A stretch of DNA of 64,000 bases from Candidatus Babeliales bacterium (GCA_963701665.1 OY969622.1:224001-288000); one strand, 5' to 3'. Shown: positions 21,075 to 49,855, numbered from the stretch's first letter. Notes: generated by a model from the letters alone, not told the origin. Translations and numbers: made by a program.

Positions 21075-21416
21075 TTATTGTTGTGCCATCATGGTTACCA
21101 TAACCATGTCATTGGAACAGTGCATTGAACAGCCCCATTGGCCATGCACCATGTGTGTTGACATTGCACCATTGTTGTTGATTGTGACTTCAAATTGAGG
21201 TGCTTCATCCGTAATTTCATCTGCAGGAACAGGTTGTACTTGAACTATGATATTTGCTTCTGGATTTGAAAGTTCTGCAACTGGGTTAGCTTCATCAAGA
21301 ACGAATTCACCCTTCATGCACTGATCAGCAACACAAACATCCATCATAAGTTTTACATCTGCTAGCAACGCATGAGCTGAGAGTAAAGATAAACAAAGTA
21401 ATGTTATTTTTTTCAT
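21075..21416 (-). CDS. Hypothetical small secreted protein
   Basis: AGGAG before MKKITLLCLSLLSAHALLA; start moved from 21491 to 21416. Confidence 0.7.
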   Translation of the reverse strand: MKKITLLCLSLLSAHALLADVKLMMDVCVADQCMKGEFVLDEANPVAELSNPEANIIVQVQPVPADEITDEAPQFEVTINNNGAMSTHMVHGQWGCSMHCSNDMVMVTMMAQQ

Positions 21417-21640
21417 AGTTTCTCCTAAACAAACTAAAAACAATGCTTTGCTTAAGGTGTGCTCGAGACGATTTTTTGCAATCTTAGACACAATATAATC
21501 TTCGAGATGTATTTGTCAATTACCTATTTTTCCCTGGGGGCCAATGAACGTGATTATAGGCATTATATGGGCTTAAAAATGGCCTTATTGGGGGGGAAAG
21601 GGGGGCTATCTGAAAATATATGGCAACCCTTACTGTTTAA

Positions 21641-21670
21641 AATTGACAAATATAAAATATAAGGTATTCT
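21641..21670 (+). promoter_or_regulatory. Promoter of the J-domain array
   Basis: TTGACA-16 bp-TATTCT; the 20-mer AATTGACAAATATAAAATAT is identical to 48418-48437. Confidence 0.55.
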
Positions 21671-21706: not shown

Positions 21707-24265
21707 ATGAATAAAAATATAGTTTTTTTGATGTTTTTAACCTGTTTTACAGGTTTATTCGCTATGGAAGATCGTTCTAAACCTCAGTCTAATACCATTG
21801 AGCAAAGGCCGACACCATATCAATTTTTAGGTATAGATAAAACAGCAGAGGCAGGGGACATAAAGAAATCCTATGTTCAATTAGCAAAACAGTATCATCC
21901 TGATAAAGCTAAGGGTGATACAGCTGTGGCAGCAGAGTATTTCAAAGTAGTACAATACGCTTATGAAGCACTTACCAAAAACAATGCAATAAACACAGAG
22001 CATGCTAAAAATGATTGGCAAGATTGGGTCAATGAACCCGCAAATATGATGATTAAATCGGCGGCAGAAAAACTACAGGCTGAAATTAAACAAAATCTTG
22101 ATAATAATCAGAATTTGGTAACTATAAAAAAATTAATATTTGATGCGTGTACTTATTATGAGACGCATCTTTCGTGGGTTGATACGACAAGCCAAAAACT
22201 TTTAAAGCGTCTAATGATCGAAAATTATGTTGAACTAACAAGAAGAGTAATAAGAACTAACGATGCAGGTGCGCAAGGAGAAGTATATGAGGCATTCATA
22301 AGAATACGCCCTCATATAAACGATATTGAGGCAGACTTAAAAGAAATAGATAAGTTACTTGATGCATGTCGAGCAAAACGTGATGCGGGCAAAAAAAATC
22401 TTCAGCCAAAGTCGAATCAGACGAGTGTTGCTTTCATGGATTCTGGGGATCTTTATGCTATTTTGGAGATAAGCCCTCTTGCAAACCAAGAAGAAATAAA
22501 CAATGCCTTTCTAAAATTGCAGACAAAATATAAGCCTTATTCATTTGCAGAAGGATCGCAAGAACGTAAGCGAGCAGAATACCAATTTAAGCCGATCTGG
22601 GATGCATTTGATACATTGGGTAATAAACAAAGAAGAGCTATCTACGATAAAAAAAGATTAAAAGCATTTGATACTTCCGCACAAAATACAGAACAACCTT
22701 CGAGAAAAAGACCCTCAGAGAATGATGGAAAAAATGCTCGCCCTGAAAAATTCGCAAAGCAAGATAATACTCAAAAGTCTTCAAAAGATGACGAAAATAT
22801 AAAGAAATTAATAAATGCGATAAACAGTGAAAATAATGCCGTGGATAACTATATAACAAACATGGGACGCAGCGAAAATATTGAACTTAATCCCCATGAA
22901 TTTTTTGAAAAAATTTGTCAGCAATATAATAAAACATTGAAGTTTCTTACTGCTACTACAAAACATGCCGATTTTTTACAACAATATAAGGACCTTGCCG
23001 ATGTAATTAATGAAACAAGCAAAAACTTTTATAGTGCTGCCAATTTTGTATATGAAAAAGGCAAAGATAAGGGATGGTTCTTATATTCGCTTCAGAAAGC
23101 ATGTGAACTGAACGAGCTTGCATTACAGTGTGCAAAGTATTTGCAATCAATTGAAGGTGAAAAAATTATGGAGAGTTGCCGCAAGCAACACAATGTTTTT
23201 ATAAAATACTTAATTGATTTATACGAAAGTTTTGATTATTTAGAGCTGTTTTTTACTGATTTATCTATTCCAGTGCATTATCGTAATAATACATTCACCA
23301 TTTTAAAAGAAGATTGTAAAAAAGAGGAATTTTCAGTTTTGAAAGAAAAATTGCCTAAGCTTTCCTATAGCATCGCTGAACATTATTTTAACCAAGGATT
23401 ATATGAAGATGCAAAAAAACTGGTTATTGCTCTTATTCGAGGCAACATGACAAGAGACAGAACAAGGTTAAGAAAAAGCAAAGATTTATTAAATAAAATT
23501 AAAGCTGCGTCTGCAGCTAAAATGGAGCAAGAAAGTGTTTATTTCTTGAATCGGTTTGAAAATGATACTCACGCGCTGAGTAATGTAATTAGATCTTATA
23601 AAATTAATAAGTCTAATGATGAGCAAACGCTATTAGCAATTCGCAACAACTGCAAACAATATGTTGATTTCATTTGGTCGAATCGCGAGCAGACTCTTTC
23701 GCCTCAAACGTATACAAATATTCTGGATAATTGTATGCAGATCATGCATGATTTACAGGAAGCAAAGCTATTCTATCCTGAATGCATAGAGCTAGTATCC
23801 CTTTGTCTCAATTTCCCTTGGAAAAACCCAGAGATTCTTAAAGAAAGTATAGAGCCCATGAGTAATTATGCTCTTGGAGCGATACTTTCTGAAGTACAAT
23901 TCACACCAGAGGATTTGAAAGATGATAAAAAATTATCGTCACTCGCTCAGAAAATGCTTTCTGAAAATCAATGTAATTTTTTTGTTAGAACGTTAGGATA
24001 CATTCGTTCTCCGAATACCTATGAAAGTGCTACCAATGCTATTCTTAAATGTTACTTTGCTTTAGCCGAACAGTTGAGCGATCATGGTAATTATTCTGAT
24101 GCACTTTTAATGCTTGATACTGCGATGCTGCGATATCGCATGGGTAGTTTACGAGAAAATTTTGAGAGTTTAAAAGCTCAGGTATGCGTATTACAAGACT
24201 TGCAAAATCCAACTAGCTTTGATGAAGACGAATTATTAAAAGAACTGTTTGAACAACATAATTGA
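21707..24265 (+). CDS. Secreted J-domain (DnaJ-like) protein 1: canonical J-domain, second degenerate J-domain, helical/TPR-like repeats
   Basis: PYQFLGI...IKKSY..LAKQYHPDK...AYEAL; second domain DLYAILEI...EINNAF...AFDTLGN..RRAIYD without HPD. Confidence 0.85.
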   Translation: MNKNIVFLMFLTCFTGLFAMEDRSKPQSNTIEQRPTPYQFLGIDKTAEAGDIKKSYVQLAKQYHPDKAKGDTAVAAEYFKVVQYAYEALTKNNAINTEHAKNDWQDWVNEPANMMIKSAAEKLQAEIKQNLDNNQNLVTIKKLIFDACTYYETHLSWVDTTSQKLLKRLMIENYVELTRRVIRTNDAGAQGEVYEAFIRIRPHINDIEADLKEIDKLLDACRAKRDAGKKNLQPKSNQTSVAFMDSGDLYAILEISPLANQEEINNAFLKLQTKYKPYSFAEGSQERKRAEYQFKPIWDAFDTLGNKQRRAIYDKKRLKAFDTSAQNTEQPSRKRPSENDGKNARPEKFAKQDNTQKSSKDDENIKKLINAINSENNAVDNYITNMGRSENIELNPHEFFEKICQQYNKTLKFLTATTKHADFLQQYKDLADVINETSKNFYSAANFVYEKGKDKGWFLYSLQKACELNELALQCAKYLQSIEGEKIMESCRKQHNVFIKYLIDLYESFDYLELFFTDLSIPVHYRNNTFTILKEDCKKEEFSVLKEKLPKLSYSIAEHYFNQGLYEDAKKLVIALIRGNMTRDRTRLRKSKDLLNKIKAASAAKMEQESVYFLNRFENDTHALSNVIRSYKINKSNDEQTLLAIRNNCKQYVDFIWSNREQTLSPQTYTNILDNCMQIMHDLQEAKLFYPECIELVSLCLNFPWKNPEILKESIEPMSNYALGAILSEVQFTPEDLKDDKKLSSLAQKMLSENQCNFFVRTLGYIRSPNTYESATNAILKCYFALAEQLSDHGNYSDALLMLDTAMLRYRMGSLRENFESLKAQVCVLQDLQNPTSFDEDELLKELFEQHN

Positions 24266-24302
24266 TACTAAAGGGAGCCTGAATACTTAAAATGGAGTTT
24301 TT

Positions 24303-27239
24303 ATGAATAAAAATATAGCTTTTTTGATGTTTTTATCCTGTTTTACAGGGTTATTTGCTATGGAAGAGCGCCCTCGGGCCCAGTTCGTTGCATTGACCCC
24401 TTATGATTTTTTAGGCCTCGACAAAACAGCAAAACCTGAAGATATAACAAAAAGTTACAGAAAATTAGCATCTGTAATTCATCCCGATAAATCTAAAAAG
24501 CCCATGGCTGAAGAGTGCTTCAAAGCAATTTGTAATGCTCATGAAGTGCTTGGCGACGATAAAGTGAAAGCTTATTACGATGAGCAGGATTGGCAAGGTT
24601 GGACAAATCCTGCATCCAGTACTGTAGTGGATAGTGAAGTTATGAAGATACATGCCCGTCAAGAAGCACTTGAAGTACATATAAGAAATAATCCGTGGGA
24701 CTTAGCAACAATAATGAAAATGACGAATGAAGCATGTAATTATTATGAGAAGTATTTTTCAAGAGCTAATGAAGAAGGTCAAAAACTTTTAAAGAATCTT
24801 GTGATAACAAATCGCCTTGAGTTAGCAAAAATGATGATTGGTACTAATGATACTAATGAACAGCAACAAGCGAGAGAGCAGCTTGAAAGAATACGAATTC
24901 ATGCAACTGAAATTCAATCGCCATTTCTTCAAGAAATAAATCAATTATTATCACGCTATATTCCCTCGCCGAGTCCGAAGCAGAAACAATCAAGTTATAC
25001 AGATTTCGATCTAATTTGTACTGCATATGAAAGTTTGAGATTTAGACGTACAGCCTTGGATAAGAAAGAATTAGAGATATGTAGTCAGATTTTAGGTGTA
25101 AGCTGTCGTGCACATATTAAAACAATAGAAGCCGCTTATAGGCATTTGGTTAGTCTAGGCGACTTATTGGCATCGAATTTATCGCTACAGCAAGTGCAGG
25201 CGTTACAATCAATGCGTGCGGCAAAAACAGGAACAGCAAATCGATCCGAAAATATGCGAGATCCTTACGAGATCTTAGGGATACGTAACGGTTCAGATTA
25301 TAAGGAAATTGACGCTGCATATCAGGAAAGAAGAATATCGCTATATCTTAAACTTAGCGAATTGAAGAAAGTCTCGGATGCATATACGGTAACTCAAAAT
25401 GAAATAGCCCAAATTGAAGAAGCGTATCGTTATTTAAGAAATCAAAAAACGAGAAATATACATGAAAAAGACACTAGTGGATCTGATCAAAAACAAAATA
25501 TTAATGATACCATACGCAAATATCAAGAGCAGCTTGGAAAACTTTACGGTCAGCGTGCCAATTGGGTGACTATACGAAAATTAGTTGATGAATCTTATGA
25601 GTATTATAGCAATGTTCTCAAAAATCATGGGCCTTTTGAGATGATAAAGGATCATATAGCAAATAATTATGCGAACCTTATACGAGAAGGTCTTAGATTA
25701 CATGAGTTTAATATGTGCTATGTAATTGAGCAAGGTTGGATTAAGAAGATAATCGAGAATACTGAAATCGAATCGGCTAATCGTTCTTATGTAGCAATGC
25801 TAATGCGTGAATATGAACGTAAAAATAAAAATGCTGGATCATATGATAAGCAGAGTTTTGCAAACAGTAATGCACCTGAAGTTAAAGATGATGTACAAAT
25901 CAAAAAACAAATTGTTGATACCATAAATGACTATCAAGAAAGATTAGATAGGCTTTTTAAACACAATCCTCAGGATAATTTTGAAGTTATAAAAACATTA
26001 GTGAATGAATCTTATGGTAAATATATGGAGATTCTTGAAACATGTTTTGATGCGGGACTCCGAGCAAAGATCAAGGGTTGCATATCTGATAATTATACAC
26101 AGCTTATAGTGGTAGGTCTTAACGAACCGCTTGAGGCTCTCATGCGCTGTGCGATAGAGCAGGTATGGTTTGACCGTGTATTGGAAAATGCGCAAATAGG
26201 TTCAAAAAATTATAATTTCGTGAAAGGATTGCTAGATAATCATGGGTCTGGTACACGAACAGAGCAGCAGCCAAGAGATAAACAAAGTGTTCGGTCTCAA
26301 AAGATCAAATCTCAAGAGATTTTAAAAAAAGTTAAAGAGTATCAGGAACGACTTGACGCCTTTTTTCAGGACATCACTCTTATATATAATAAAAAATCAT
26401 CTAATATGGATGAAATAAAATCATTAGTTTATGAGTCTCACGATTATTATAGATCCATTTTAGCATTAGCGTCATCGGAACATGCACATGTTCGTAACAT
26501 GCTTAGAAAACATTTATCAAATAATTATTCGAGACTTGTAAAAAAAGGCCTTTTAGGCTTTGGGATTCAATTGGATTGGGTACAATTGGGAATTGAATAT
26601 TCTGAAGTAGGAACCCCTAATTATATCTATTTAAAACAGATAGAGGCTGAATGCTTTAAGCAACAAAATAACACGAAAAAACGATCGTTCAGCGAGACAA
26701 ATAGCGATACAGATGAGGAAAACGAAACAGAAGAATCTGAAAATGTAGGTCAGCCTCAACAAAAACAAGCAAAAGTTGAACGTGAAAAAGAACAAGAACA
26801 TACAGCATCGGATCAAAATGAGGCTGCAAACAAGCATAGAAGTCCTCATTATTCTTCTATACGACATCAAATTGAAACGATACATGGATTGTTGGATAAA
26901 GGGTTAGATTCAGTTTCTGCTAAGGATGCTGTTATCTCAAGTCCGGGCTATTTTAATAATTTATTACAAAACATACCATCTCGTGATGATCGTAAAAGCG
27001 CTGCTATTGAGATACTTGGACTTTATCAAAAAGTAGTTGAAAAATTGATAGATACGGGCGCCGAGAATACTGCGTGCATTATAATGGATGCTGCAGACGC
27101 ATTAATTAAGAGAGAAATACACAGTGCGCGCGATAGATGCGCTCTGTTAAAAGCTCAAGTATCGGTAATGCAGGGCGTACCAAATTCTGCGGATGAGATA
27201 GATTCATTATTGGATGCGGTGCTTGAAGAGCATAGTTGA
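24303..27239 (+). CDS. Secreted J-domain protein 2: canonical J-domain, degenerate J-like segments, three helical repeats
   Basis: YRKLASVIHPDK; DPYEILGI...EIDAAY; repeated YQE.L...LV.ES..YY...NY..L...GL unit. Confidence 0.85.
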   Translation: MNKNIAFLMFLSCFTGLFAMEERPRAQFVALTPYDFLGLDKTAKPEDITKSYRKLASVIHPDKSKKPMAEECFKAICNAHEVLGDDKVKAYYDEQDWQGWTNPASSTVVDSEVMKIHARQEALEVHIRNNPWDLATIMKMTNEACNYYEKYFSRANEEGQKLLKNLVITNRLELAKMMIGTNDTNEQQQAREQLERIRIHATEIQSPFLQEINQLLSRYIPSPSPKQKQSSYTDFDLICTAYESLRFRRTALDKKELEICSQILGVSCRAHIKTIEAAYRHLVSLGDLLASNLSLQQVQALQSMRAAKTGTANRSENMRDPYEILGIRNGSDYKEIDAAYQERRISLYLKLSELKKVSDAYTVTQNEIAQIEEAYRYLRNQKTRNIHEKDTSGSDQKQNINDTIRKYQEQLGKLYGQRANWVTIRKLVDESYEYYSNVLKNHGPFEMIKDHIANNYANLIREGLRLHEFNMCYVIEQGWIKKIIENTEIESANRSYVAMLMREYERKNKNAGSYDKQSFANSNAPEVKDDVQIKKQIVDTINDYQERLDRLFKHNPQDNFEVIKTLVNESYGKYMEILETCFDAGLRAKIKGCISDNYTQLIVVGLNEPLEALMRCAIEQVWFDRVLENAQIGSKNYNFVKGLLDNHGSGTRTEQQPRDKQSVRSQKIKSQEILKKVKEYQERLDAFFQDITLIYNKKSSNMDEIKSLVYESHDYYRSILALASSEHAHVRNMLRKHLSNNYSRLVKKGLLGFGIQLDWVQLGIEYSEVGTPNYIYLKQIEAECFKQQNNTKKRSFSETNSDTDEENETEESENVGQPQQKQAKVEREKEQEHTASDQNEAANKHRSPHYSSIRHQIETIHGLLDKGLDSVSAKDAVISSPGYFNNLLQNIPSRDDRKSAAIEILGLYQKVVEKLIDTGAENTACIIMDAADALIKREIHSARDRCALLKAQVSVMQGVPNSADEIDSLLDAVLEEHS

Positions 27240-27265
27240 TAGTATAGATATAAAATGGAGTTTTT

Positions 27266-29008
27266 ATGAATAAGAATATACTTTTTTTAATTATTTTAAG
27301 TTGCTTTACCGGTTTATTTGCTATGGAAGAGCGCCAACCATCGCATGGACAAGGAGTCGATTTATATCTACTTTTAAGAGTTAACAATGATGCTACGACC
27401 CAGGATATAGATACGGCTTACAAAGCACTTGAACATCGAGAAATAATGTCAGGATTTAAAACTGTAGATTATTTTTTCAATGTTGTTCGAGCTTATAAAA
27501 TTTTATCTAATGATAAGTTGAGAAATATCTATGATAACCGTGGCCCTAGCGCTGCAGATGTTGCTTTATATGCTACAGGATATCCGCACGCAACCGATTT
27601 GGCTGTTCGAACTAGAATAGCGAAGGATCAAGATGATCTTAGATCAAAAGACGGTAATGCGTTGCTGAAGCTTATAAAAGAAGTAAATGCTTACTATCGA
27701 GGACACTTGTTTATGGGGACCGCCAAGTTATGTGATACATTGCGTGATTGTATAGCACAAAATTACTATAATCTTGCACATGGTTTATTCTGTAATGTTA
27801 GATATAATCATGATGCAGTGCTAGAGTACATCAAGCAAGGGTTGAATTTTGCATTACCTGAGAGTCCTGCTTCTAATGCCTTAAAAGCTTTCGCCAATAA
27901 GTTACAAAAGCCAACAGAGTCTAAAACAAAGTCGCCGAGAGTTGATCTTCAACAATGGCATCCATCTACAAATATTCAACAAGAAGCGGCTCTTGATCTT
28001 CTAGATGATACTAATGCAAAAATTTTAAATGTAGTAGAAGATAGAGAAGCTTTCGAAACGCCAAAAGTGTTTTGTAAAAAAATATACGAATACTTAGATG
28101 CATACGCGAACTATACTATGCCAGCTTCATTGGAAAAGGATCGGAATTTTTCAAGTAAGCGTCATCTATGCAGTGCATTAACACATAGCGCAGCTGAAAA
28201 ATTACTTGGAATGTCAAAAGACACCATTTGGCATATCTATGGATTACAGCATGCAAAAATATTATGCCAAAAGGCATCAGATCATACTTTGCGTTTACCA
28301 AATATCAAACGGTATAGAAATACAAAGCAAACTATAGAAAGTAGTATTGTAACCATACAAGGATCTTTAGATGCTTGGTATACGCAAGGTACTTGTCTAG
28401 TTAATTTCTTTATAAGCCCTGAAATACCGCTAGATCTTTGTAAAGATGTATGGGCAACTATGATCAATGATATTGCAAGATTTAGTGTTGAAACACAAGA
28501 TGTAATGCTCGATTGTACCTATCAATTGGCACGACGATGTTTGAATGAACATTATTATGATGAAATTATAGATATAAATTTAAAAGTCTTGGCAAATCAG
28601 TATATACAATCTAGGGCTGATTTTGTTGCTCAATATCGAGAACTTATCGATAGTGCGCTCAATAACCTTGAACAACAATGCAGTACATTTTTCAAAGCGT
28701 TCCATGGTGAATTTCTCATGAGGTATGACAACAAGGATTCATCGGAAGCTTTAGCAGACATTATTCAAAATTATTTTACAATGCAATATATGCCATCACA
28801 ATCCATTGAAACAATGTTTGGTGATATCTTTTTACTATATACACGGCGGCTTGAACCCGAAAAAAAATGGGATAAAATGTACGAGTTAGCATGGCGCTGC
28901 TTAACTTTTAATAGATGGCCTGCGCATATTCAGAAACATGAACTTTTTACAACCATGCGCAAATTTATTACTAACTATGAAGATCTAAAAGCCAAAGGGC
29001 TTATGTAA
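27266..29008 (+). CDS. Secreted J-like protein 3 (no HPD)
   Basis: DLYLLLRV..DAT.QDI..AYK...AYKILSN..LR..YD; HPD replaced. Confidence 0.8.
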   Translation: MNKNILFLIILSCFTGLFAMEERQPSHGQGVDLYLLLRVNNDATTQDIDTAYKALEHREIMSGFKTVDYFFNVVRAYKILSNDKLRNIYDNRGPSAADVALYATGYPHATDLAVRTRIAKDQDDLRSKDGNALLKLIKEVNAYYRGHLFMGTAKLCDTLRDCIAQNYYNLAHGLFCNVRYNHDAVLEYIKQGLNFALPESPASNALKAFANKLQKPTESKTKSPRVDLQQWHPSTNIQQEAALDLLDDTNAKILNVVEDREAFETPKVFCKKIYEYLDAYANYTMPASLEKDRNFSSKRHLCSALTHSAAEKLLGMSKDTIWHIYGLQHAKILCQKASDHTLRLPNIKRYRNTKQTIESSIVTIQGSLDAWYTQGTCLVNFFISPEIPLDLCKDVWATMINDIARFSVETQDVMLDCTYQLARRCLNEHYYDEIIDINLKVLANQYIQSRADFVAQYRELIDSALNNLEQQCSTFFKAFHGEFLMRYDNKDSSEALADIIQNYFTMQYMPSQSIETMFGDIFLLYTRRLEPEKKWDKMYELAWRCLTFNRWPAHIQKHELFTTMRKFITNYEDLKAKGLM

Positions 29009-30941
29009 GCATCGGCTTTAATAGTTAGGGACGAAATTTTAAAATTTATGGAGGGGATAAAAAAATGACTATTTCAATAAAGAACATTATTTTTTTAGGT
29101 ATTTTGAGTATTTCATGCGGTATGCCATTGTTTGGTATGGAAGAACGCCGACCATTGCCTGCACAAGAAGTTAGTTTATATACACTATTAAAACTCGATA
29201 ATAATGCGACTGAAGAGCAAATAAAAACTGCATTTACAAATCTTCAAAATGCCCAAATAGAATCGGGCTTTAAAGATGAGGAGAATTTCTTTAGTGTTGC
29301 ACTTGCGTATAAAATTTTATCAAATAATGAGCTGAGAGAATGCTATGATAACTATGGTTATATCGTAGCCTATAATGATTTACGCATGAAAGGATATTCA
29401 CAGAAAGTTGATTTGGAGGTTAAGGCCAAAATAGAAGAATATCAAAATGTACTTCAGAAATCATTGATGAGCATGGATACTTTAACAATACAAATTGATA
29501 CAAAAAAAGTAAATGATTTCTACCAAGCAAATTTGTTTAAGGGCACCCCTGAACTATGTGATACATTGCGCGATTATATAGCACAAAATTACTATAATCT
29601 GGCGCGTGGTTTATATGCTGTTAAATATAAGCGTAATCAAGTGTTAGAATACATTAAGCAAGGATTGAATTTTGCATTAGCTGAGAGTTATTTTTCTAAT
29701 GAATTAAAAGCTCTTCAAAATGAGTTGCAAAATCAAACAAAGTCTCAAACAGAGTTATCACCAGTTGGGTTTCAATGGCACCAATCTCGAGAATCCAAAG
29801 CTTATGTAGATAATCAACGAGAAATAGTTCTTAATTTTCTAAATGATACTAATGCAAAAGTTTTAAATGCATTAAAAGATAAAGAAGCTTTCGAAACGCC
29901 AACAACGTTTTGTAAAAAAATATATGAATACTTAGATGCATTAGCGAACTATGATGTGCAAGTGGATTTAAAAAATGATCTTGTTTTTTTACGTAAGCGC
30001 TATATGTGCGGTGAATTTACCTATAAAGCAGCCGAAAAATTACGTAAAATGTCACAAGGCACCATCTGGTATAGCTATGGATTACAGCATAGAAAAATAT
30101 TATGCCAAAAGGCATTAGGTCATATTTTGTGTTTACAAAATCTCAATAAATATAGAAATACAAAGCGTAGTATAGAAAGCGATATTGTAAAGATACAAGG
30201 ACTTTTAGATTCATGGTATACGCAGGGTGGCTGTTTGCTTGATTTCTTTATAAATCCTGAAATACCGCTAAATCTTTGTAAAGATGTATGGGCAACTATG
30301 ATCGATGATATTGGAAGATTTAGCGTTGAAACACAAGATGTAATGCTCGATTGTACCTATCAATTGACACGACGATGTTCGAGTGAGCATTATTATGATG
30401 AAATTATAGATATAAGTTCAAAAGCCTTGGCAAATCAGTATATACAATCTAGGGTTGATTTTGTTGCTCGATATAAACACCTTATCGATAGTATATTCAA
30501 TGAAGTCTTTGATACGTGCCGCCGTGGATTGCGCACAAAGCATGAAAACAAAGTTTCAGCTGAGACTTTGGCTGACCATATTATTCAAAATTATTTTACA
30601 ATCCAACATATGTCATCACAATCTATCAAAACAATGTTTGAGGATATTCTTTTAATATATACGCAGCGGCTTGAACCTGAAATGAAATGGGATAAAATGT
30701 ATGAATTAGCAAAAAGCTGCTTAACTTTTGATAAGTGGCCTCAACACATTCAGATACATAGACTTTTTATAACGATGCGTACGTTTAAGGCTCGGTATGA
30801 AACGTTAAAAGCTCGAGGGCGTATATAAGCATCGGCTTTAATAGTTAGGGACGAAATTTTAAAATTTATGAGGGGGATAAAAAAAATGACTATTTCAATA
30901 AAGAACATTATTTTTTTAGGTATTTTAAGTATTTCATGCGG
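29006..30941 (+). repeat. ~115-bp direct repeat (29006-29120 and 30826-30941) covering the intergenic region, RBS and signal peptide
   Basis: TAAGCATCGGCTTTAATAGTTAGGGACGAAATTTTAAAATTTATG...ATGACTATTTCAATAAAGAACATTATT is near-identical in both copies. Confidence 0.9.
29065..30828 (+). CDS. Secreted J-like protein 4 (no HPD), close paralog of protein 3
   Basis: SLYTLLKL..NATEEQIKTAF...AYKILSN.ELRECYD; long stretches near-identical to 27266-29008. Confidence 0.8.
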   Translation: MTISIKNIIFLGILSISCGMPLFGMEERRPLPAQEVSLYTLLKLDNNATEEQIKTAFTNLQNAQIESGFKDEENFFSVALAYKILSNNELRECYDNYGYIVAYNDLRMKGYSQKVDLEVKAKIEEYQNVLQKSLMSMDTLTIQIDTKKVNDFYQANLFKGTPELCDTLRDYIAQNYYNLARGLYAVKYKRNQVLEYIKQGLNFALAESYFSNELKALQNELQNQTKSQTELSPVGFQWHQSRESKAYVDNQREIVLNFLNDTNAKVLNALKDKEAFETPTTFCKKIYEYLDALANYDVQVDLKNDLVFLRKRYMCGEFTYKAAEKLRKMSQGTIWYSYGLQHRKILCQKALGHILCLQNLNKYRNTKRSIESDIVKIQGLLDSWYTQGGCLLDFFINPEIPLNLCKDVWATMIDDIGRFSVETQDVMLDCTYQLTRRCSSEHYYDEIIDISSKALANQYIQSRVDFVARYKHLIDSIFNEVFDTCRRGLRTKHENKVSAETLADHIIQNYFTIQHMSSQSIKTMFEDILLIYTQRLEPEMKWDKMYELAKSCLTFDKWPQHIQIHRLFITMRTFKARYETLKARGRI

Positions 30942-32745
30942 CATATCATTATTTGGTATGGAAGAACGCCGGCCGACGGAAGCGGTTAGTTTATATGAAT
31001 ATTTAAGCGTTAAGAATGATGCTACTGCTCAGGATCTGGATATGGCTTACAAAGCACTTGAAGATGAGGAAATAAGATCGGGATTTAAAACTTTGGATTA
31101 TTTTTTCGACGCTGTTCAAGCTTATAAAATTTTATCGGATAATGAGCTGAAACAAGTATATGATCAGCATGGCTATGCATCAGCATATAATCAATTGATC
31201 CTTAAAGGCTATCCTCAAAAAATTGATGAGGATGTGCAGAGCCGGATGAAAAAATATCAATATGAACTTAAAAATAATCCGAAAGATACAGTTTCCTTTC
31301 AAGATAGTACAAAAAAGGTGAATGCATACTATCAAGCACAATTGTTTATGGGCACTCGAGCCTTATGCAATGAACTGCGCAGAGTTATAGCGCAAAACTG
31401 CTATGATCTTGCGCGTTTTCTTTATGGTATTCAATTGTGTAGACACATACGTGCCTACGAAGTACAGCAAGGCATTCAAATATGCGCCTATATTGACGAA
31501 GGATTACGTTTTGCTCTATCCGATAGCCCTCTTGTGCGTGAGTTAGCAAGTTTAAGAAAAAAAATTACTGATCGGGCAGAACAAAGCATGAAAAAGATCG
31601 AAGATGGGAAGGGTATATTGGTTATACCAAGAAAAAACTTTTATATCTATGAATCTTCTGAAATCAAAAAACGTAAAATAAAGGAAAAGGATGATACAAA
31701 AAAAGTTGCTCGTAAACAGAAACAGAGCAAATCTCCACGGCTTGAAAAAGTAGATGATGAACAAAAAAATAAAGCAAAAACATCATTCTCAGATAAACTA
31801 AAAATAATGGGATTATTGGAAAATAACAATAAAAATCTTGCTTATATTCTAGAAAATATGCCCCCTGCGTGGACACCTAAGATGCTTTTTGAAAAAATAT
31901 GTGAAGTTTCGGAGCGACGCGATAATAATGATGATACAATGAATTTATTGCAACATGATCCTGATATTGTACGTGCCCGTTTTATAGGTGGCCAGTTACT
32001 ACAACGTGCTGCTAAAAAACTATTTGAAAAGTCGCAGAGAACTCCGTGGGTTTATTATGGATTGCAACGAGCAAAAATTTTATGTCAGAAAGCATTAGAT
32101 CATATCTCATTAGCACAAGGTATCAATGAATATAATGATATGCATACGCACATACAAAATGAGCTTGCCGTTATACAGAAACGTTTGAATACATGGTATG
32201 GGCAAAAGAAAGCTGTGTATGATTTCTTTAATCTCGATATACCACTGGATATTTGCAAAGATGTCTTGATAGGTTTAATCAATGATGCTGAAACATTAGA
32301 TGATCAAACTCGGAACACTGTATTTATTTGTGTCAATCTATTAGCAATAAGATATATCTCGGATGGTCGTTATTTTGATGCCCTTGCTCTTATTAACAAT
32401 GCTTTAGAAAAATCCTACGCGCAATCAACTGATGCTTTTGAAAAATGCATAAAGCTGAAAAGCTCTATAGAAGATCAAATTAGCAGATTTCAAAGACTAT
32501 TTAATGGTTCATCTGATGAAAATTTTGATATGTCAGATAAGTTTCTATCGGAAATGTTTGCTGATATCATTTCAATATATACACGATTTGAGCGTAATAA
32601 AAAATTTGATAAAATGTATGATTTAGCAAAAAAGTGTTTAACTTTTGATAGATGGCCTCAATCCGTTCGTGAACATAAGCTCTTTACAACAATGCAAAGC
32701 TTCAGTGCCACATACGAAATGAAAAAAGCCCAAGGGCGTATATAA
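30886..32745 (+). CDS. Secreted J-like protein 5 (no HPD) with a basic central insert
   Basis: Same MTISIKNII...LFG-MEERR leader as protein 4 (start set at 30886); J-like domain; shared C-terminus CLTF.RWP....H.LFTTM. Confidence 0.8.
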   Translation: MTISIKNIIFLGILSISCGISLFGMEERRPTEAVSLYEYLSVKNDATAQDLDMAYKALEDEEIRSGFKTLDYFFDAVQAYKILSDNELKQVYDQHGYASAYNQLILKGYPQKIDEDVQSRMKKYQYELKNNPKDTVSFQDSTKKVNAYYQAQLFMGTRALCNELRRVIAQNCYDLARFLYGIQLCRHIRAYEVQQGIQICAYIDEGLRFALSDSPLVRELASLRKKITDRAEQSMKKIEDGKGILVIPRKNFYIYESSEIKKRKIKEKDDTKKVARKQKQSKSPRLEKVDDEQKNKAKTSFSDKLKIMGLLENNNKNLAYILENMPPAWTPKMLFEKICEVSERRDNNDDTMNLLQHDPDIVRARFIGGQLLQRAAKKLFEKSQRTPWVYYGLQRAKILCQKALDHISLAQGINEYNDMHTHIQNELAVIQKRLNTWYGQKKAVYDFFNLDIPLDICKDVLIGLINDAETLDDQTRNTVFICVNLLAIRYISDGRYFDALALINNALEKSYAQSTDAFEKCIKLKSSIEDQISRFQRLFNGSSDENFDMSDKFLSEMFADIISIYTRFERNKKFDKMYDLAKKCLTFDRWPQSVREHKLFTTMQSFSATYEMKKAQGRI

Positions 32746-32762
32746 ACCTGCTAAATACAATC

Positions 32763-33362
32763 TTAAGAACTGCTTTCTTTCTTTAACAAGGTAATACCCT
32801 TTTTCATCGTGGTACATTCTTGATCATAACCCCAACGGAAGAACCATGCAAAAGAAGATGCCCATGTATCACAATTTTTACATTTAATACCAGGAATAAC
32901 CTTTTTAGAATTAGCACTGTAACGTGCTTCTAAAATTTCAAAAGGTGTATAGGCAGATGTTTTAGCTTTCTCATTTGGGTGTGCATTAAATTTTTGGAAT
33001 GCTTCTAAGATATTGGGATCAATTCGTTCATATTCTATGTAATCAGTAAACATTTGCTGAACAACATCAGGATATTTTTGTGCTATTTCATTTAATTTCA
33101 GGCTTAACGTATCATCTTTTTCAGGTGAATATGCATCCCACCACATAAGGTTAAACCATACATAAGGATTTATTTTCATGGCACCAACTATGGTTTCTGC
33201 ATTTATGTTCTGATAGAGAGCCTGTATCTCTGAACAGTTGCGATAAGCTTTAGCTTTATGACTTGAGAATAAAAATTGTTCAAGATCAGTTTTACAAGAA
33301 GATGATGCATGAAAACTAAAAATCGTAAGCAAGGCAGCACTAGCTATAATGCGTGATTTCAT
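32763..33362 (-). CDS. Small secreted protein, member of the post-groEL paralog family
   Basis: AAGGA RBS before MKSRII; AHPNEK...YTPFEILE; C-terminal C..W...DQEC. Confidence 0.7.
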   Translation of the reverse strand: MKSRIIASAALLTIFSFHASSSCKTDLEQFLFSSHKAKAYRNCSEIQALYQNINAETIVGAMKINPYVWFNLMWWDAYSPEKDDTLSLKLNEIAQKYPDVVQQMFTDYIEYERIDPNILEAFQKFNAHPNEKAKTSAYTPFEILEARYSANSKKVIPGIKCKNCDTWASSFAWFFRWGYDQECTTMKKGITLLKKESSS

Positions 33363-33404
33363 AGGTATTTCCTTTATGTAAAACTTTTTGCACATGTGCA
33401 TAAC

Positions 33405-33437
33405 AAAAGAGCTCGCATCATTGCGAGCCCTTTTTTT
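33405..33437 (-). terminator. Intrinsic terminator (copy of the groEL-type hairpin)
   Basis: GCTCGCA-TCAT-TGCGAGC stem between A and T tracts. Confidence 0.7.
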
Positions 33438-33474
33438 GATATAAAATTACCATAAATAATTAACACATGCCACA

Positions 33475-33834
33475 CTATTTTAAATGTTGTCCTGGCATAT
33501 TTATTGAATAATAAGAGATTGCTGCTTGGATGAGCCAACGATTTTCTTTATAGATGTAGGCAATTGCTTGGGGAACTATGTCTGAGCGATACGGGAGATC
33601 CATACACACCATACCAAGGTAACACACAGCGCTAGGCGTGAGGCGGCTCAATATTTCTTTTTTATTATCCAATATTACTGACGATGGTAGATGACTCCTC
33701 TCGTCATCTGAAAGTCGAGAAGCTAAAAAGCGAAGAATTTCTTCTTCACTAAATTGTGCAGTTTCTTGTGATGCACTGATGATTGAAGCTGAGCTAATCG
33801 TGAGGAGCAGTAAAAAAAGTTTTTTAAAGTTCAT
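33475..33834 (-). CDS. Small secreted protein, shortened paralog of 33858-34433
   Basis: MNFKKLFLLLL leader; EEEILRFLA vs ENAILQFLA; QAIAYIY..LIQAA vs QSLRYVY..LLQQA. Confidence 0.65.
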   Translation of the reverse strand: MNFKKLFLLLLTISSASIISASQETAQFSEEEILRFLASRLSDDERSHLPSSVILDNKKEILSRLTPSAVCYLGMVCMDLPYRSDIVPQAIAYIYKENRWLIQAAISYYSINMPGQHLK

Positions 33835-33857
33835 AAGATATTCCTTAATTATTGTAT

Positions 33858-34433
33858 CTATTTTTCCAAACATGAAAGGCTTTCTCCAAGCGCTTTACAT
33901 TCACGGCTTTTTCCAAAAATCTTGCTCCATGTGCCGTTACAGTTGTGTGATTTTTCATGTGCTGCCAGTTTGTCTTTTAATGTAACTTCTTGGCCTTCTA
34001 GTTTCTCATCGAATTTCACACCTGCTGCAGAAAATATTTTAATAATCCTGGCATCAACTGCGCCTTGAACAATGTAAAGATCGGCTGCCTGCTGTAGTAA
34101 TTCAGGTTTTTTATAATAAACATAACGTAATGATTGGCATACAAATCGCTGTGTTCTTTCATCCAGACCAAAACCAGTTGCAAGTAAAGCTAAGCCGTAA
34201 ACCTTTTCCGGGTGAACAGCATTTAAAAGTTCTTCTTTGGGTTTGTGGAAAAAAGCTTCACCAGCGAGAAATTGAAGAATAGCATTTTCTCGGTCTAAAA
34301 CTTCTTCTTTAGTCGCTGTATCAAAGACGCGCTTCCATACATTATCGAACTCTTCTAATTTTTGTTTTTGTGCTTCTACTTTTAGGAACAGTAAGCATAC
34401 TAAAAAAGTAAAGGCTATTTTTTGAAAATTCAT
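33858..34433 (-). CDS. Small secreted protein, post-groEL paralog family
   Basis: MNFQKIAF signal peptide; C-terminal HNCNGTW...REC. Confidence 0.7.
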   Translation of the reverse strand: MNFQKIAFTFLVCLLFLKVEAQKQKLEEFDNVWKRVFDTATKEEVLDRENAILQFLAGEAFFHKPKEELLNAVHPEKVYGLALLATGFGLDERTQRFVCQSLRYVYYKKPELLQQAADLYIVQGAVDARIIKIFSAAGVKFDEKLEGQEVTLKDKLAAHEKSHNCNGTWSKIFGKSRECKALGESLSCLEK

Positions 34434-34459
34434 GAGTTATATCTTTCGTATGTGTTGAG

Positions 34460-34496
34460 AAAAGAAGGCCCTGCTCATACTGCGAGCCTTCTTTTT
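34460..34496 (-). terminator. Degenerate copy of the groEL-type terminator
   Basis: AAAAGAAGGC...TGCGAGCCTTCTTTTT. Confidence 0.6.
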
Positions 34497-34506
34497 ATTT
34501 TTTTCG

Positions 34507-35136
34507 TTATTTCTTTGGTTGCTGATTCATGCGGTTAAGAGTTCTTCTTATTTTTGAGCATTCTTGATCTGGAAACCAAGGATTTGGATTGCACTTGTGT
34601 AGTAATGAATGAAGATCTTTCATTTTTCTTGCTCCAAAGGCTACTTCTAAAAGTTCTTTTGGGCTATACCCTAGATGATCGTCAGTTACTTTATTCTTTA
34701 GATTGGGATTTGCTTCTGCATCTAAAAGAATCCTTACGATTATTTCATTAAAAAGATCTTCATCCTCATAGAGGTTTGGGTACCTGAGTTTATCAATATT
34801 AATCGCACTATGCAGTAATGTGTTGCCGTATTCATCAGTGAGACTGGCATCTTTTGGATTTCTGTTAATTAAATAACGAAAAGCTTCTACAACTTTGGGT
34901 TTATCTGTTTCATCTACATTGCGTGCCAAAATAGCTAATTTATAGAGAAGCGGGAATCTGTTAAAACCGTACACACGGCGAGAATTTGAATCTTTAACGC
35001 GATCCAAAAACTCATTTAATTCTTGTTCATTGGCAAAATGAGTAAACGTAAACGTAGCATTGTTAGCTTCTACCGCTTTTAGAGAAATAGTTGCTCCTGT
35101 AACTAACAGTGCCAAAAACATTTTTTTGAAATGCAT
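34507..35136 (-). CDS. Secreted ankyrin-like protein, post-groEL paralog family
   Basis: DEYGNTLLHSA...IVRILLDAEANPNLKN...SPKEL; C-terminal HKC...W..DQEC. Confidence 0.75.
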   Translation of the reverse strand: MHFKKMFLALLVTGATISLKAVEANNATFTFTHFANEQELNEFLDRVKDSNSRRVYGFNRFPLLYKLAILARNVDETDKPKVVEAFRYLINRNPKDASLTDEYGNTLLHSAINIDKLRYPNLYEDEDLFNEIIVRILLDAEANPNLKNKVTDDHLGYSPKELLEVAFGARKMKDLHSLLHKCNPNPWFPDQECSKIRRTLNRMNQQPKK

Positions 35137-35226: not shown

Positions 35227-36910
<1,684 letters not shown>

Positions 36911-48494: not shown

Positions 48495-49829
48495 ATGAAA
48501 TTAAATTTAGCTATTTTTACCCTAATTTTAGGCCTTTTTCCAGGTTTGTATGCCATGGAACAAGAGCAGTCTAATCAACAAATTATTAACCTGAAACTTT
48601 CAGATGGGCAAATGGTAAGTTTTCCTGCAGAAGTTGCCTTGCATTCATCTTTGCTTCGTACCTATCTAGAAGATAATGAGATACATGATGATTCCCCTCT
48701 CGTTGATTTCTCTGAACAGCAATTATGTATGCACGATATCGACGATAGTGATGATAAAGAAAAAATTCATGATCTTGCATTAAATTCTAAAATTGTACGC
48801 GCGGTTTTTGATTGTGTGATACATGGCAAAAAAATACTTCATGATTTAAACAAAGATGAATTGATTGCAGCATTTGAAGTAGGAGATTATTTAGGAATCC
48901 CCCAAAAAACAATGAGGAAATTGACGCGCTGTATTCAAAAAAATATTGCAGAAAATGAGCAACCTCAATTAGTACGAATCTCTCATTATTGCAATTCAAT
49001 TCGCAATTTGTATCGTGATGATGTGCTTCAGGTAATACTGCAAAGAATTAATGTGATTCATGGTTTTGAAGAAATTGAATGCGAGCCGTATCGATTGATA
49101 ATTAAACCACAAAAAATTGACGAATTAAGCGGGATTGAAGATCTTGCACAAAAATATGAAAAAGTGTGCATCCGAGAAATTTGTTTGGATAATAATTCAT
49201 TAAAGATGCTTGATGTTAAACAGCTTATAAAACTGTTTCCTTTTGTGAATATGATTTTTGCTAATAATAATAAAATTGAAAAACTTATTTTACCAGAAAC
49301 ATTGCCAGCGGAATTTGCGCTTTTATTGCAAAAAAATAAGATTAAAGAACTTTCCAATTTTAAATTAGGCGAAAATGGCTACATTGATTTGCGCAATAAT
49401 CCACTTTCAGGTTCTGCGCAAGAAAATATCCAAAGAGCTATGCATCCAACTCTAATAGAACTGAATAGGCCACTAGTCAACACACTTTCAAGTTTTGATT
49501 CTTTCAAAAATGGCGCAGGAAGTTTTTTTCAACAATCATTAATTATTGGTAGTACCATAAGCTTAATTAATCTAGGGTACGCGACAATGAAATATTATAT
49601 GGGTTCTACACCATCAATAATAAGTACATTTAAGAAAGAGTTAATAAGTGACATGAAATCATCTTTTCTGTTAAAATCTCTCGGTGCTACGTTATTAGCA
49701 TCTACAGGCTATGTCTGGTATGTTAGTTATTTTCAATGGAAACATGCAAATGAAACGCTATGGAATTCATACCAAAGACCACTTATTGATTACGATCAAA
49801 CTAGCGAACCCGCAACATTAGAAAAATAA
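48495..49829 (+). CDS. Secreted Skp1/BTB-POZ-like + leucine-rich-repeat protein with C-terminal TM helices
   Basis: INLKLSDGQ...EVALHSSLLRTYLED...LIAAFEVGDYLGI; LRR units LDNNSLK, ANNNKIE, LQKNKIK, LRNNPL. Confidence 0.75.
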   Translation: MKLNLAIFTLILGLFPGLYAMEQEQSNQQIINLKLSDGQMVSFPAEVALHSSLLRTYLEDNEIHDDSPLVDFSEQQLCMHDIDDSDDKEKIHDLALNSKIVRAVFDCVIHGKKILHDLNKDELIAAFEVGDYLGIPQKTMRKLTRCIQKNIAENEQPQLVRISHYCNSIRNLYRDDVLQVILQRINVIHGFEEIECEPYRLIIKPQKIDELSGIEDLAQKYEKVCIREICLDNNSLKMLDVKQLIKLFPFVNMIFANNNKIEKLILPETLPAEFALLLQKNKIKELSNFKLGENGYIDLRNNPLSGSAQENIQRAMHPTLIELNRPLVNTLSSFDSFKNGAGSFFQQSLIIGSTISLINLGYATMKYYMGSTPSIISTFKKELISDMKSSFLLKSLGATLLASTGYVWYVSYFQWKHANETLWNSYQRPLIDYDQTSEPATLEK

Positions 49830-49855
49830 CTAAAAATATTCTTTATGGAGTTGTT

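Follow-up and report, generated by a model that had tools for sequence, protein, structure and literature searches.

A tandem array of five leader-bearing J-domain and J-like paralogues in a Candidatus Babeliales bacterium and its possible connection to host Hsp70

The array, its J-domains and the predicted structures

The window, i.e. the whole stretch of 64,000 nucleotides that was analysed, contains five intact, co-oriented paralogous ORFs of a Ca. Babeliales (Dependentiae) genome in tandem; all features described below are on the plus strand. Gene 1 (21707..24265, 852 aa) encodes a leader followed by Met-Glu (ME), a J-domain with HPD (J1), a helical unit of ~100 aa (module B), a second, HPD-less J-like domain (J2), a basic linker and a helical body. 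Gene 2 (24303..27239, 978 aa) has leader/ME and an HPD-bearing J1; module B, present once in each other gene, occurs here four times, and there is one internal HPD-less J, followed by a basic/acidic linker and a C-terminal helical domain common to gene 1. Gene 3 (27266..29008, 580 aa) consists of leader/ME, an HPD-less J fold, module B and a helical body, the basic linker being lost, and gene 4 (29065..30828, 587 aa) has the same layout and is 58% identical to it. Gene 5 (30886..32745, 619 aa) combines leader/ME, an HPD-less J with an acidic helix II, module B, a class-1 nuclear localization signal (NLS) match and a helical body; its ORF could also be read from 30868 (625 aa), and the ribosome-binding site (SD) favours 30886. 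The intergenic gaps are 26-57 nt, and the array is probably one operon. A sigma70-like promoter candidate (21643..21670, TTGACA-16-TATTCT, 10/12 match) was picked out by its position upstream of gene 1; overall, such sites were not more frequent than in shuffled sequences. In each of the five genes short-read contigs matched scattered stretches with no gap in the alignments, a partial cover that is too sparse to confirm all reading frames or groEL.

The first-pass annotation had described an array of five secreted J-domain proteins with a progressive loss of HPD. The Pfam DnaJ profile (PF00226, cut-off 27.8 bits) indeed matched every N-terminus, with 101.8 and 88.5 bits for genes 1 and 2, which pass the cut-off, and 25.7, 27.8 and 18.6 bits for genes 3, 4 and 5. 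HPD, which is required for stimulation of the Hsp70 ATPase, is present in J1 of gene 1 (21896..21904, aa 64) and of gene 2 (24480..24488, aa 60), and one degenerate J-like segment without HPD was found in each of these two genes, as had been proposed (22448..22648, aa 248-315, with low model confidence, in gene 1; 25260..25460, aa 320-389, in gene 2). It was verified that HPD is absent from genes 3-5 over their full length. The loss is not progressive, it is a single step: genes 3-5 have one common loop replacement or shortening, which recurs in a 35%-identical homologue (P0016). Other lesions among the relatives are HPS in genome G001, NPA in two genes of genome G003, and those of all internal J repeats. 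Separate HPD losses are indicated because the lesions differ; the J-domain tree (65 columns), which was mostly unresolved with unsettled bootstrap values, does not count losses, as parsimony needs four HPD changes and the well-supported branches force only one. In all five multi-J members examined (genes 1 and 2, P0004, P0021 and P0022) the first J has HPD and the internal ones lack it.

The net charge of helix II is +2 and +1 in genes 1 and 2, and -2, -1 and -5 in genes 3, 4 and 5; the mean was +2.5 in 58 domains with HPD versus +0.3 in 31 HPD-less domains. By profile match, an HPD between helices II and III, and a basic helix II, genes 1 and 2 classify as J-domain proteins of class C, and genes 3-5 as J-like (type IV-like), not as canonical J-domain proteins. 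The zinc-finger CxxCxGxG repeats of class A DnaJ do not occur in the array proteins; the one protein found to have them is the canonical DnaJ, which the genome encodes separately.

The predicted models of genes 1 and 3 are all-helical throughout, which agrees with the long helical bodies noted at first. In the gene 3 model (pLDDT 84) residues ~7-86 match the J-domains of ERdj5, CSP, DNAJB8 and dnj-2 (Z 8.4-9.9, rmsd 2.2-6.5, 22-30% identity), and this HPD-less domain is predicted to keep the J fold; homology and Pfam suggest the same for genes 4 and 5. Fold searches with both models yielded only generic solenoid matches (TM ~0.1-0.2), and that the helical body has no assigned fold should not be taken to mean that its fold is new. 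Module B matched TPR domains weakly (Sec72, Z 10.2; FKBP TPRs, Z 8.4-8.7), within noise for helical bundles, and the DnaJ/TPR clusters of the Atlas were at 0.78-0.80, where matches under 0.9 are leads only. An EEVD-binding TPR carboxylate clamp in module B was unsupported: at the positions that we take to be those of the clamp Lys, Asn and Arg the alignment is not conserved, and its single invariant Asn lies elsewhere than the presumed clamp Asn. In joining a J-domain to TPR-like helices the array proteins resemble those class C J-proteins that carry TPR or helical domains (bacterial DnaJ/TPR, DNAJC3/DNAJC7), whereas DjlA has a membrane anchor and a C-terminal J, the J of the array proteins being N-terminal.

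The leader, the Met junction and the route of export

All five proteins begin with an uncharged leader of 17-19 residues that ends LF[AG]-ME, and none of the five has a membrane helix downstream of it. The signal peptide plus ME noted on each protein in the first-pass annotation was recovered as a signal-peptide-like leader plus ME. Leaders were called, instead of with SignalP, by an in-house hydropathy heuristic that also makes false calls, e.g. on a groEL fragment. The leader has a basic n-region and a short hydrophobic core (19-residue hydropathy 1.3-1.9). In 151 ORFs with a leader, M[EDQ] lies between residues 15 and 34, and 134 of them had A, S, G or C at -1 (38 expected), and [AGSC]M[EDQ] followed the leader in 136/512 leader-bearing ORFs, compared with 72/7982 internal 18-mers. 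N-region, core and small -1 residue are, at the level of this heuristic, features of Sec/signal peptidase I substrates, and export by Sec with cleavage by signal peptidase I right before the Met appears plausible. Internal translation starts at the ME methionine were rejected, with SD-like pairing at 4% of 156 versus 60% at the leader starts, and so were lipoproteins (signal peptidase II), the leader Cys of genes 1-5 being absent in the homologues P0017, P0021 and the G003 genes, all of which have M[EQ].

Outside this family the junction is patchy: ten other genomes were sampled, and it was present in 13/134 of their leader ORFs and in none from five of these genomes. The recognisable envelope proteins of the genome (GspC/D, Pal-like, BamD, ABC binding protein, thioredoxins) belong to the non-ME leader class; a scan of 51 ME proteins, with a different profile library, detected no such protein. 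A leader-like N-terminus is also present on glutamine synthetase, normally a cytoplasmic, ATP-using enzyme.

The closest relatives of the RecD2 protein are from Ca. Babeliales/Dependentiae (51-59% identity; others 42-51%), a lineage of bacteria living inside protists, and the window also encodes an ATP/ADP translocase as well as ankyrin and WD40 genes. The genome has two secretins, two T2SS/pilus ATPases, GspC and two signal peptidase I genes, and no match to FlhA/SctV (PF00771) or VirB4 was found in it at 93.6% completeness. T2SS substrates have been described to exit the Legionella vacuole (PMC6617341), and export of the array proteins into the host may be envisaged.

The genome encodes one DnaK, which is leaderless. 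A second Hsp70 was not found in any of 41 Babeliales genomes, each with at most one DnaK (in pieces in three) plus an MreB-sized weak match. Among 76 non-canonical J-proteins, taken from 61 fetched Babeliales stretches and the own genome, 68 have a leader and 55 have kept HPD. The first-pass annotation had inferred a host Hsp70 target from the periplasm's lack of ATP and DnaK. The ATP premise, which is general knowledge, is weaker for this lineage, because normally cytoplasmic ATP-using enzymes also bear leaders here; the missing second Hsp70 is a stronger argument for a host partner. For the members with HPD the proposed export and host Hsp70 partner gained independent but indirect support from the T2SS, the single leaderless DnaK and the lack of a second Hsp70, and also from the lack of an internal ME start and the enrichment of NLS and ankyrin in the leader+ME class (see below); the proposed decoy role is disfavoured.

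Divergence of the family and basic linkers

In the same-genus genome G001 the flanking genes are 69-88% identical and the array genes 21-32% over long alignments. Between strains the HPD-less J-domain was invariant (61/61) and the C-terminal body variable (88/108). Judged by such alignments, the family is fast-evolving. In the G001 orthologue of genes 1-2 the motif reads HPS, and HPD is missing from both adjacent genes; with no intact HPD, Hsp70 stimulation is not conserved at that locus. One neighbour in G003 resembles the array proteins in its basic linker and helical body but gave no J match. A tract of gene 4 (30256..30474) is ~94% identical to gene 3, short-read contigs cross both of its edges without differences, and comparison with gene 3 makes gene conversion likely. 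The dN/dS values among genes 3-5 were 0.57-0.66 overall and 0.45-0.82 in the J-domain, which at the sequence level is weak constraint and no proof of a new function; positive selection was rejected, as values above 1 occurred only in the conversion-affected gene 3/4 region (1.23). In a profile search of 261 genomes of the order, with at most three candidates scored per genome, matches beyond the J-domain were found only in G001 among the matches listed. Searches for related loci retrieved nothing for the upstream anchor gene and nothing for the array in metagenomes.

Three NLS-like stretches had been noted, and all could be located; they were scored against class-1, class-2 and bipartite consensus patterns. 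That of gene 5 (31666..31689, KKRK) is a class-1 monopartite match; the bipartite-like stretch of gene 1 (22697..22759), in a predicted disordered linker, is non-canonical, and so is the long-spacer stretch of gene 2 (26673..26774), which is below consensus. Gene 3 has a class-2 match in a predicted helical region, gene 4 has no consensus match, and neither of the two has a basic linker. An NLS consensus was present in 21/94 leader+ME proteins of at least 250 aa (5.3 expected) and in 7/178 other leader proteins (5.5 expected), and ankyrin in 24/156 leader+ME versus 13/356 other leader proteins; the proteins in these counts are related to one another, so that p-values are overstated. Strict bipartite patterns were not enriched (2/94 leader+ME proteins), and only one of four ad hoc patterns was specific to the class. 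In homologues with ~20% identity the basic motif is retained in the same linker, the consensus being reached in 4/7 tested, and P0021 and P0022 also have it there.

A possible role in the host, and alternatives

We favour, at roughly even odds (about 0.5), the reading that the five paralogues are exported, that the pair with HPD recruits host Hsp70, and that the three HPD-less members are Hsp70-independent binders. After Sec export and cleavage just before the Met the proteins would pass the type II secretin, or vesicles, into the cytosol of the protist host, and members with the basic linker would go on to the nucleus. J1 of genes 1 and 2 would stimulate host Hsp70 beside a bound target in a HopI1-like manner, a step inferred from established J-domain biochemistry, with the targets held by the helical bodies. 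One HPD-loop loss and two duplications would have led to genes 3-5, in which the retained J fold would serve for structure or for binding. The variable C-terminal helical region would be the likely target-binding surface, diversified through duplication and gene conversion.

A wider reading is doubtful as a whole. It would make the array the Hsp70-hijacking arm of a Babeliales Sec/type II route for nucleus-bound effectors, with leader cleavage exposing Met-Glu/Asp/Gln/Asn. Such a eukaryote-like, NatB-type start might resist host N-degron turnover and be analogous to the processed PEXEL N-terminus; members with HPD would direct the nuclear Hsp70 of the host to selected complexes for remodelling, and in their HPD-less paralogues the J fold would have become a new binding module.

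It is unlikely, though the best placed of the alternatives to the favoured reading, that the whole family is exported and independent of Hsp70, with the J fold capping a J+B module, HPD as a remnant and the HPD-less copies drifting. The diversity of HPD lesions (loop loss in genes 3-5, HPS, NPA, internal repeats), the G001 locus without any intact HPD, the high paralogue dN/dS and the G003 neighbour with linker and body but no J match would fit this. Against it, HPD is kept in the first J of 5/5 multi-J members while internal Js lose it, and in 55/76 non-canonical J-proteins of the order; HPD and a basic helix II co-vary, no reading frame of the array is broken, and strains do not differ in the HPD-less J.

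Less probable still is an uncleaved, DjlA-like membrane tether, or a bypassed leader, with cytoplasmic J-domains that serve the own DnaK as extra chaperones. The cognate DnaK is present, three Babela-specific DnaJ-domain proteins have been read as an enlarged own chaperone set (PMC4378268), and the leader on glutamine synthetase suggests that a leader may not always mean export. Basic n-region, short hydrophobic core, the strongly selected small residue before the Met and the missing SD ahead of it nevertheless point to cleavage and export, the enrichment of NLS and ankyrin would be senseless in the bacterial cytoplasm, and ~21-32% identity within a genus is unlike housekeeping co-chaperones.

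Equally improbable is export without nuclear entry, with a host Hsp70 elsewhere (vacuole lumen, ER BiP, mitochondrial) or effector refolding at the bacterial surface. T2SS releases proteins just beyond the outer membrane, remodelling of the host mitochondrion is described for one cultured member of the Dependentiae (PMC6561590), exported Plasmodium J-proteins assist folding of other exported proteins (PMC9149364), and genes 3-4 lack the basic linker. Against this, NLS-type motifs occupy the same position in distant homologues, and sequence inspection revealed an acidic mature N-terminus and no organelle-targeting sequence after it.

Least probable are the Hsp70 decoys proposed at first, i.e. 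HPD-less members that bind host Hsp70 without stimulation and block host J-proteins. In their favour, the J fold is retained in the gene 3 model, a potential interaction with host Hsp70 is described for eCiJP, one of the exported Plasmodium J-proteins with a corrupted HPD (PMC9149364), and activation was not always abolished by HPD/AAA, but simulations found that this mutation abolishes a stable Hsp70-J complex (PMC13012618), and genes 3-5 have lost the whole loop together with the basic charge of helix II, which is neutral to acidic. The repurposed binders of the first-pass annotation fit better. Competition of the helical bodies of genes 3-5 for shared targets, which is distinct from Hsp70 decoying, is possible.

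HopI1, a J-domain-containing type III effector of Pseudomonas syringae, has been shown to bind Hsp70 and to stimulate it (PMC6321325). The array is set beside it by description only, as a bacterial HPD J-domain protein proposed to act on host Hsp70. HopI1 is type III-secreted, targeted to the chloroplast and has PQ repeats, whereas the array proteins have Sec-type leaders, an N-terminal J, helical repeats, NLS-like linkers and HPD-less paralogues, and the genome has no match to the type III export gate (PF00771), so that the comparison is one of working principle, not of membership. Plasmodium falciparum, likewise a parasite that lives inside cells, exports an enlarged repertoire of J-proteins, of which many are HPD-corrupted (type IV; RESA, PF10_0381, eCiJP) and some use host Hsp70 (PMC9149364). 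It differs as a eukaryote with PEXEL/PTEX export and its own exported Hsp70, PfHsp70-x, while the 41 Babeliales genomes have no second Hsp70; the likeness is best regarded as convergent, and no homology is claimed past the J fold. Within the same order as the array, Babela massiliensis is described as having T2SS for its only secretion system, three lineage-specific DnaJ-domain proteins and ankyrin proteins with signal peptides (PMC4378268), and for Chromulinavorax signal sequences are reported on 44% of proteins (PMC6561590). The Babela proteins are treated as the bacterium's own chaperones, and the accessible part of that account mentions neither leaders on them nor HPD loss, the Met junction or NLS enrichment (PMC4378268). 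No description of the array proteins or the Met junction was found in the open-access literature, Babela supplements aside.

Dependentiae would have to manipulate their protist hosts with Sec/type II secretion only, and almost no effectors have been characterised. If host Hsp70 is what the leader-bearing J-proteins work on, an entire bacterial order shares a strategy otherwise seen in a single effector of a plant pathogen and in malaria parasites; under the wider reading this would be an order-wide bacterial convergence on the exported J-protein strategy of Plasmodium. The array offers a natural series with and without HPD in which the function of an HPD-less J fold can be tested, and the Met junction a simple sequence mark to pick host-directed proteins in this family. 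A five-gene leader+ME tandem array is not unique here: 62 tandem paralogue groups were found, some with 6 or 7 genes, and the leader+ME class accounts for 56 of their 151 genes.

Architecture of the array and its relatives

Five ORFs were found at 21707-32745 on the forward strand, where the first-pass annotation had placed the array: gene 1 (21707-24265, 852 aa), gene 2 (24303-27239, 978 aa), gene 3 (27266-29008, 580 aa), gene 4 (29065-30828, 587 aa) and gene 5 (30868-32745 as ORF). The start of gene 5 is more likely at 30886 (619 aa), because the ribosome-binding site there copies the one before gene 4; the 619-aa form exists in a public protein collection. Candidate sigma70-like sites, both with perfect TTGACA hexamers, lie back-to-back at 21492-21670 and face the array and a small antisense leader gene (21075-21416).

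The frames had to be checked because single-base insertions are clustered in the assembled groEL, 4 kb downstream. About eight of them within 500 nt, compared with the same-genus genome G001, break this only copy (35227-36883, reverse strand) into three ORFs, which is likely a long-read error patch and not biology. Every array gene had a leader at its start and a C-terminus in common with a paralogue, pieces of all five were matched without gaps by short-read contigs (partial cover), and the array was treated as intact. Four small leader-bearing genes, one with weak ankyrin matches, lie between the array and groEL (32763-35136, reverse strand); at their place G001 has two genes, one 25% identical.

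A profile search covering 1.84 billion representatives yielded nine proteins at E below 1e-30, one of them a tandem-J protein matching via J alone, and a few further proteins that match the family beyond the J-domain. These and the fetched relatives have a common architecture: a leader followed by Met-Glu (ME), a J-domain, a helical module B of about 100 aa, a linker that is basic and of low complexity, and finally a long helical body. J and B form a repeated unit, with four B copies in gene 2 and several in the homologue P0022. In all five multi-J members examined (genes 1 and 2, P0004, P0021, P0022) the first J carries HPD and the internal copies lack it. AlphaFold models of gene 1 (pLDDT 72.5, pTM 0.43) and gene 3 (pLDDT 83.8, pTM 0.49) were all-helical, in agreement with the long helical make-up predicted earlier, and fold searches with the helical bodies gave generic solenoid matches only. 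For the HPD-less N-terminal domain of the gene 3 model, alignment to J-domains of known structure gave Z 8.4-9.9 at 22-30% identity, in line with the proposal that J helices are kept without HPD.

Between the same flanking genes G001 encodes three leader+ME J-proteins: one of 780 aa that carries HPS, and two shorter ones, of 180 and 256 aa, that lack HPD. The flanking genes are 69-88% identical, whereas the array genes reach 21-32% over long alignments. No J gene was present in the equivalent interval of G003, another genome of the order, which at a separate place has three leader+MQ J genes in tandem, of which two have NPA and the third HPD; they are weakly similar to the array family beyond J (E 6e-5 over 36 residues). 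Thus, arrays mixing HPD-bearing and HPD-less copies recur.

Further J-proteins were seen elsewhere. On contig C1 of the genome under study, 1061302-1062690 encodes a further leader+ME protein; it has three J-like repeats, only the first with HPD, and an orthologue-like gene in G003 (L007:3191-4519). A dispersed relative of genes 3-5 is the unlinked 227-aa leader+ME protein at C1:541124-541807, with an HPD-less J, module B and a still basic helix II (+3). The leader-bearing protein at C1:712238-714280 carries an HPD-less J-like domain in its middle part (in most cases near aa 215-310); unlike the fast-evolving array, this type recurs in several genomes across families (stretches L009, L158, L159, L164, L170), and it could be a conserved protein of the envelope or of the interface with the host. 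In G039 an 85-aa stand-alone, leaderless HPD J-domain gene (L169:1737-1994) lies directly upstream of canonical dnaJ, and in G022 a similar J match adjoins dnaJ.

Probable export and the proposed Hsp70 partner

From the sequence features we infer, with a probability of about one half, that exported HPD-bearing members couple host Hsp70 to targets and that the HPD-less clade consists of Hsp70-independent binders. The array proteins would be exported by Sec, their leader would be cleaved before the Met, and release would occur via a type II secretin; the HPD-bearing members would then link host Hsp70 to targets that their helical bodies hold, some of these targets being nuclear.

The genome is a single 1.34-Mb contig (37% GC, completeness 93.6%), and its RecD2 is 51-59% identical to Ca. 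Babeliales/Dependentiae records and 42-51% to other taxa. Protists are described as hosts of these intracellular parasites (PMC4378268, PMC6561590, PMC4776705). Two secretins, two T2SS/pilus ATPases, GspC and two tandem signal peptidase I genes were found, and FlhA/SctV and VirB4 had no match in this 93.6% complete genome; a T2SS without other secretion systems fits reports on the lineage (PMC4378268; PMC4776705). The two signal peptidase I paralogues (L206:620-2410, that is C1:911619-913409) are similar and of 290 aa.

The genome encodes one DnaK, which is leaderless. It had been presumed that ATP is lacking outside the cytoplasm, a premise weakened by a glutamine synthetase-like protein with a signal-peptide-like N-terminus (L115:3040-4425, reverse strand; TIGR00653, 418 bits, just under the cut-off). 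Therefore, a second Hsp70 was searched for, and no second DnaK was found in 41 of 41 genomes sampled across the order, the leader being checked for the DnaK of the present genome only. The sampled genomes had 1-14 J-domain matches each. Non-canonical J-proteins were taken from the present genome and 61 stretches around most, not all, of these matches; a leader was found in 68 of the 76, HPD in 55 and the Met junction, by pattern, in 27. Provided that the leaders are real, HPD J-domains outside the cytoplasm combined with the lack of an exported Hsp70 imply that the partner comes from the host. The glutamine synthetase with a leader keeps alive the alternative that the array leaders do not export.

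The array is proposed to work like HopI1 and to run parallel to the exported J-proteins of Plasmodium, but it belongs to neither family as described in PMC6321325 and PMC9149364, respectively. In the main texts of the open-access library searched, J-proteins of this lineage that are exported, lack HPD or bear an NLS were not described, and the Babela-specific DnaJ-domain proteins are treated in PMC4378268 as the bacterium's own chaperones.

Loss of HPD and divergence of the paralogues

Only genes 1 and 2 have HPD, each in its first J, as had been annotated. The Pfam DnaJ matches of genes 1-5 (101.8, 88.5, 25.7, 27.8 and 18.6 bits) fall in one step between gene 2 and gene 3, and the progressive loss proposed earlier was not borne out: there is no gradient, but one shortened, replaced HPD loop common to genes 3-5 and the homologue P0016, which are grouped in the J tree (93/88, unstarred). 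Over their length, genes 3-5 share 36-58% identity; genes 1 and 2 have in common the N-terminal 220 and the C-terminal 115 residues. Lesions of other kinds (HPS, NPA, internal repeats) point to several independent losses, for the counting of which the J tree is too weak.

Where HPD is lost, helix II also becomes less basic: the mean net charge was +2.5 in 58 HPD-bearing and +0.3 in 31 HPD-less domains (the rows being related), and -2, -1 and -5 in genes 3-5. Helices II and III are reported to contribute to Hsp70 recognition (PMC13012618). The HPD-less members had also been proposed as Hsp70 decoys, and one HPD-corrupted Plasmodium protein is described as potentially binding host Hsp70 (PMC9149364). 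However, this role is disfavoured, because a decoy must still bind Hsp70, yet genes 3-5 have lost the basic helix II together with HPD, and in the simulations of PMC13012618 HPD/AAA did not form a stable complex.

From strain to strain, genes 3 and 4 keep an unchanged J-like domain (61/61 in both), while the body varies (124/139 and 88/108). In residues 402-449 of gene 4, 11 of 13 strain differences match gene 3, and the DNA identity to gene 3 climbs to about 94% over 30256-30474. Both edges of this tract, which likely stems from gene conversion, were spanned without differences by contigs of the short-read run X1, which may be the source sample. The dN/dS among paralogues, 0.57-0.66, speaks for weak constraint and is no proof of positive selection.

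The Met junction and putatively host-directed features

ORFs of at least 100 aa (n=1147) were classified with our own leader heuristic, which makes some false calls, into 156 with a leader and M[EDQNK], 356 with another leader, 180 membrane and 455 cytoplasmic. [AGSC]M[EDQ] followed the leader in 136 of 512 leader ORFs; the next commonest middle residue reached 33, and internal windows 72/7982. With the -1 residue left free, 134 of 151 junction sites had A/S/G/C there (38 expected), and signal peptidase I sites likewise have small -1 residues. A second translation start at the junction Met was ruled out, SD-like pairing preceding it in 4% of cases versus 60% at true starts. In other families the junction occurs unevenly (13/134 leader ORFs).

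The class with a leader and ME looks host-directed, judged by its motif content. Common NLS consensus patterns were used for scoring and matched 21 long ME proteins out of 94 (5.3 expected), compared with 7/178 among the other leader proteins and 13/241 among the cytoplasmic ones; the signal came from monopartite motifs, bipartite ones occurring in only 2/94. Three of four ad hoc patterns, which had been tried first, were not class-specific. Ankyrin repeats were found in 24/156 ME versus 13/356 other leader proteins, and a partial scan recognised envelope proteins among 102 other leader proteins (NCBIfam) and none among 51 ME proteins (Pfam). By the E/D/Q pattern the class is also enriched in tandem arrays.

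Of the NLS-like stretches annotated in three array genes, only that of gene 5 agrees credibly with the consensus; genes 1 and 2 miss it, their motifs being weaker. Reading these as NLS-like is nevertheless supported, because basic motifs sit in the same linker of the G001 orthologue, of three out of the four G003 proteins and of P0021 and P0022, despite about 20% identity.

E, D, Q or N follows the small residue and Met in 143 of 212 cases. Acidic +2 residues are common after bacterial signal peptides, which argues against over-reading the junction. The same four residues after Met are the set acetylated by NatB, and its reported tethering to the ribosome is a further caution (PMC9692967). An N-degron or PEXEL-like role may be considered as a side reading, outside the main explanation.

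Two tandem leader+ME paralogues without Pfam match were also seen at 48495-51172 (forward strand); by eye, their N-terminal parts resemble Skp1/BTB.
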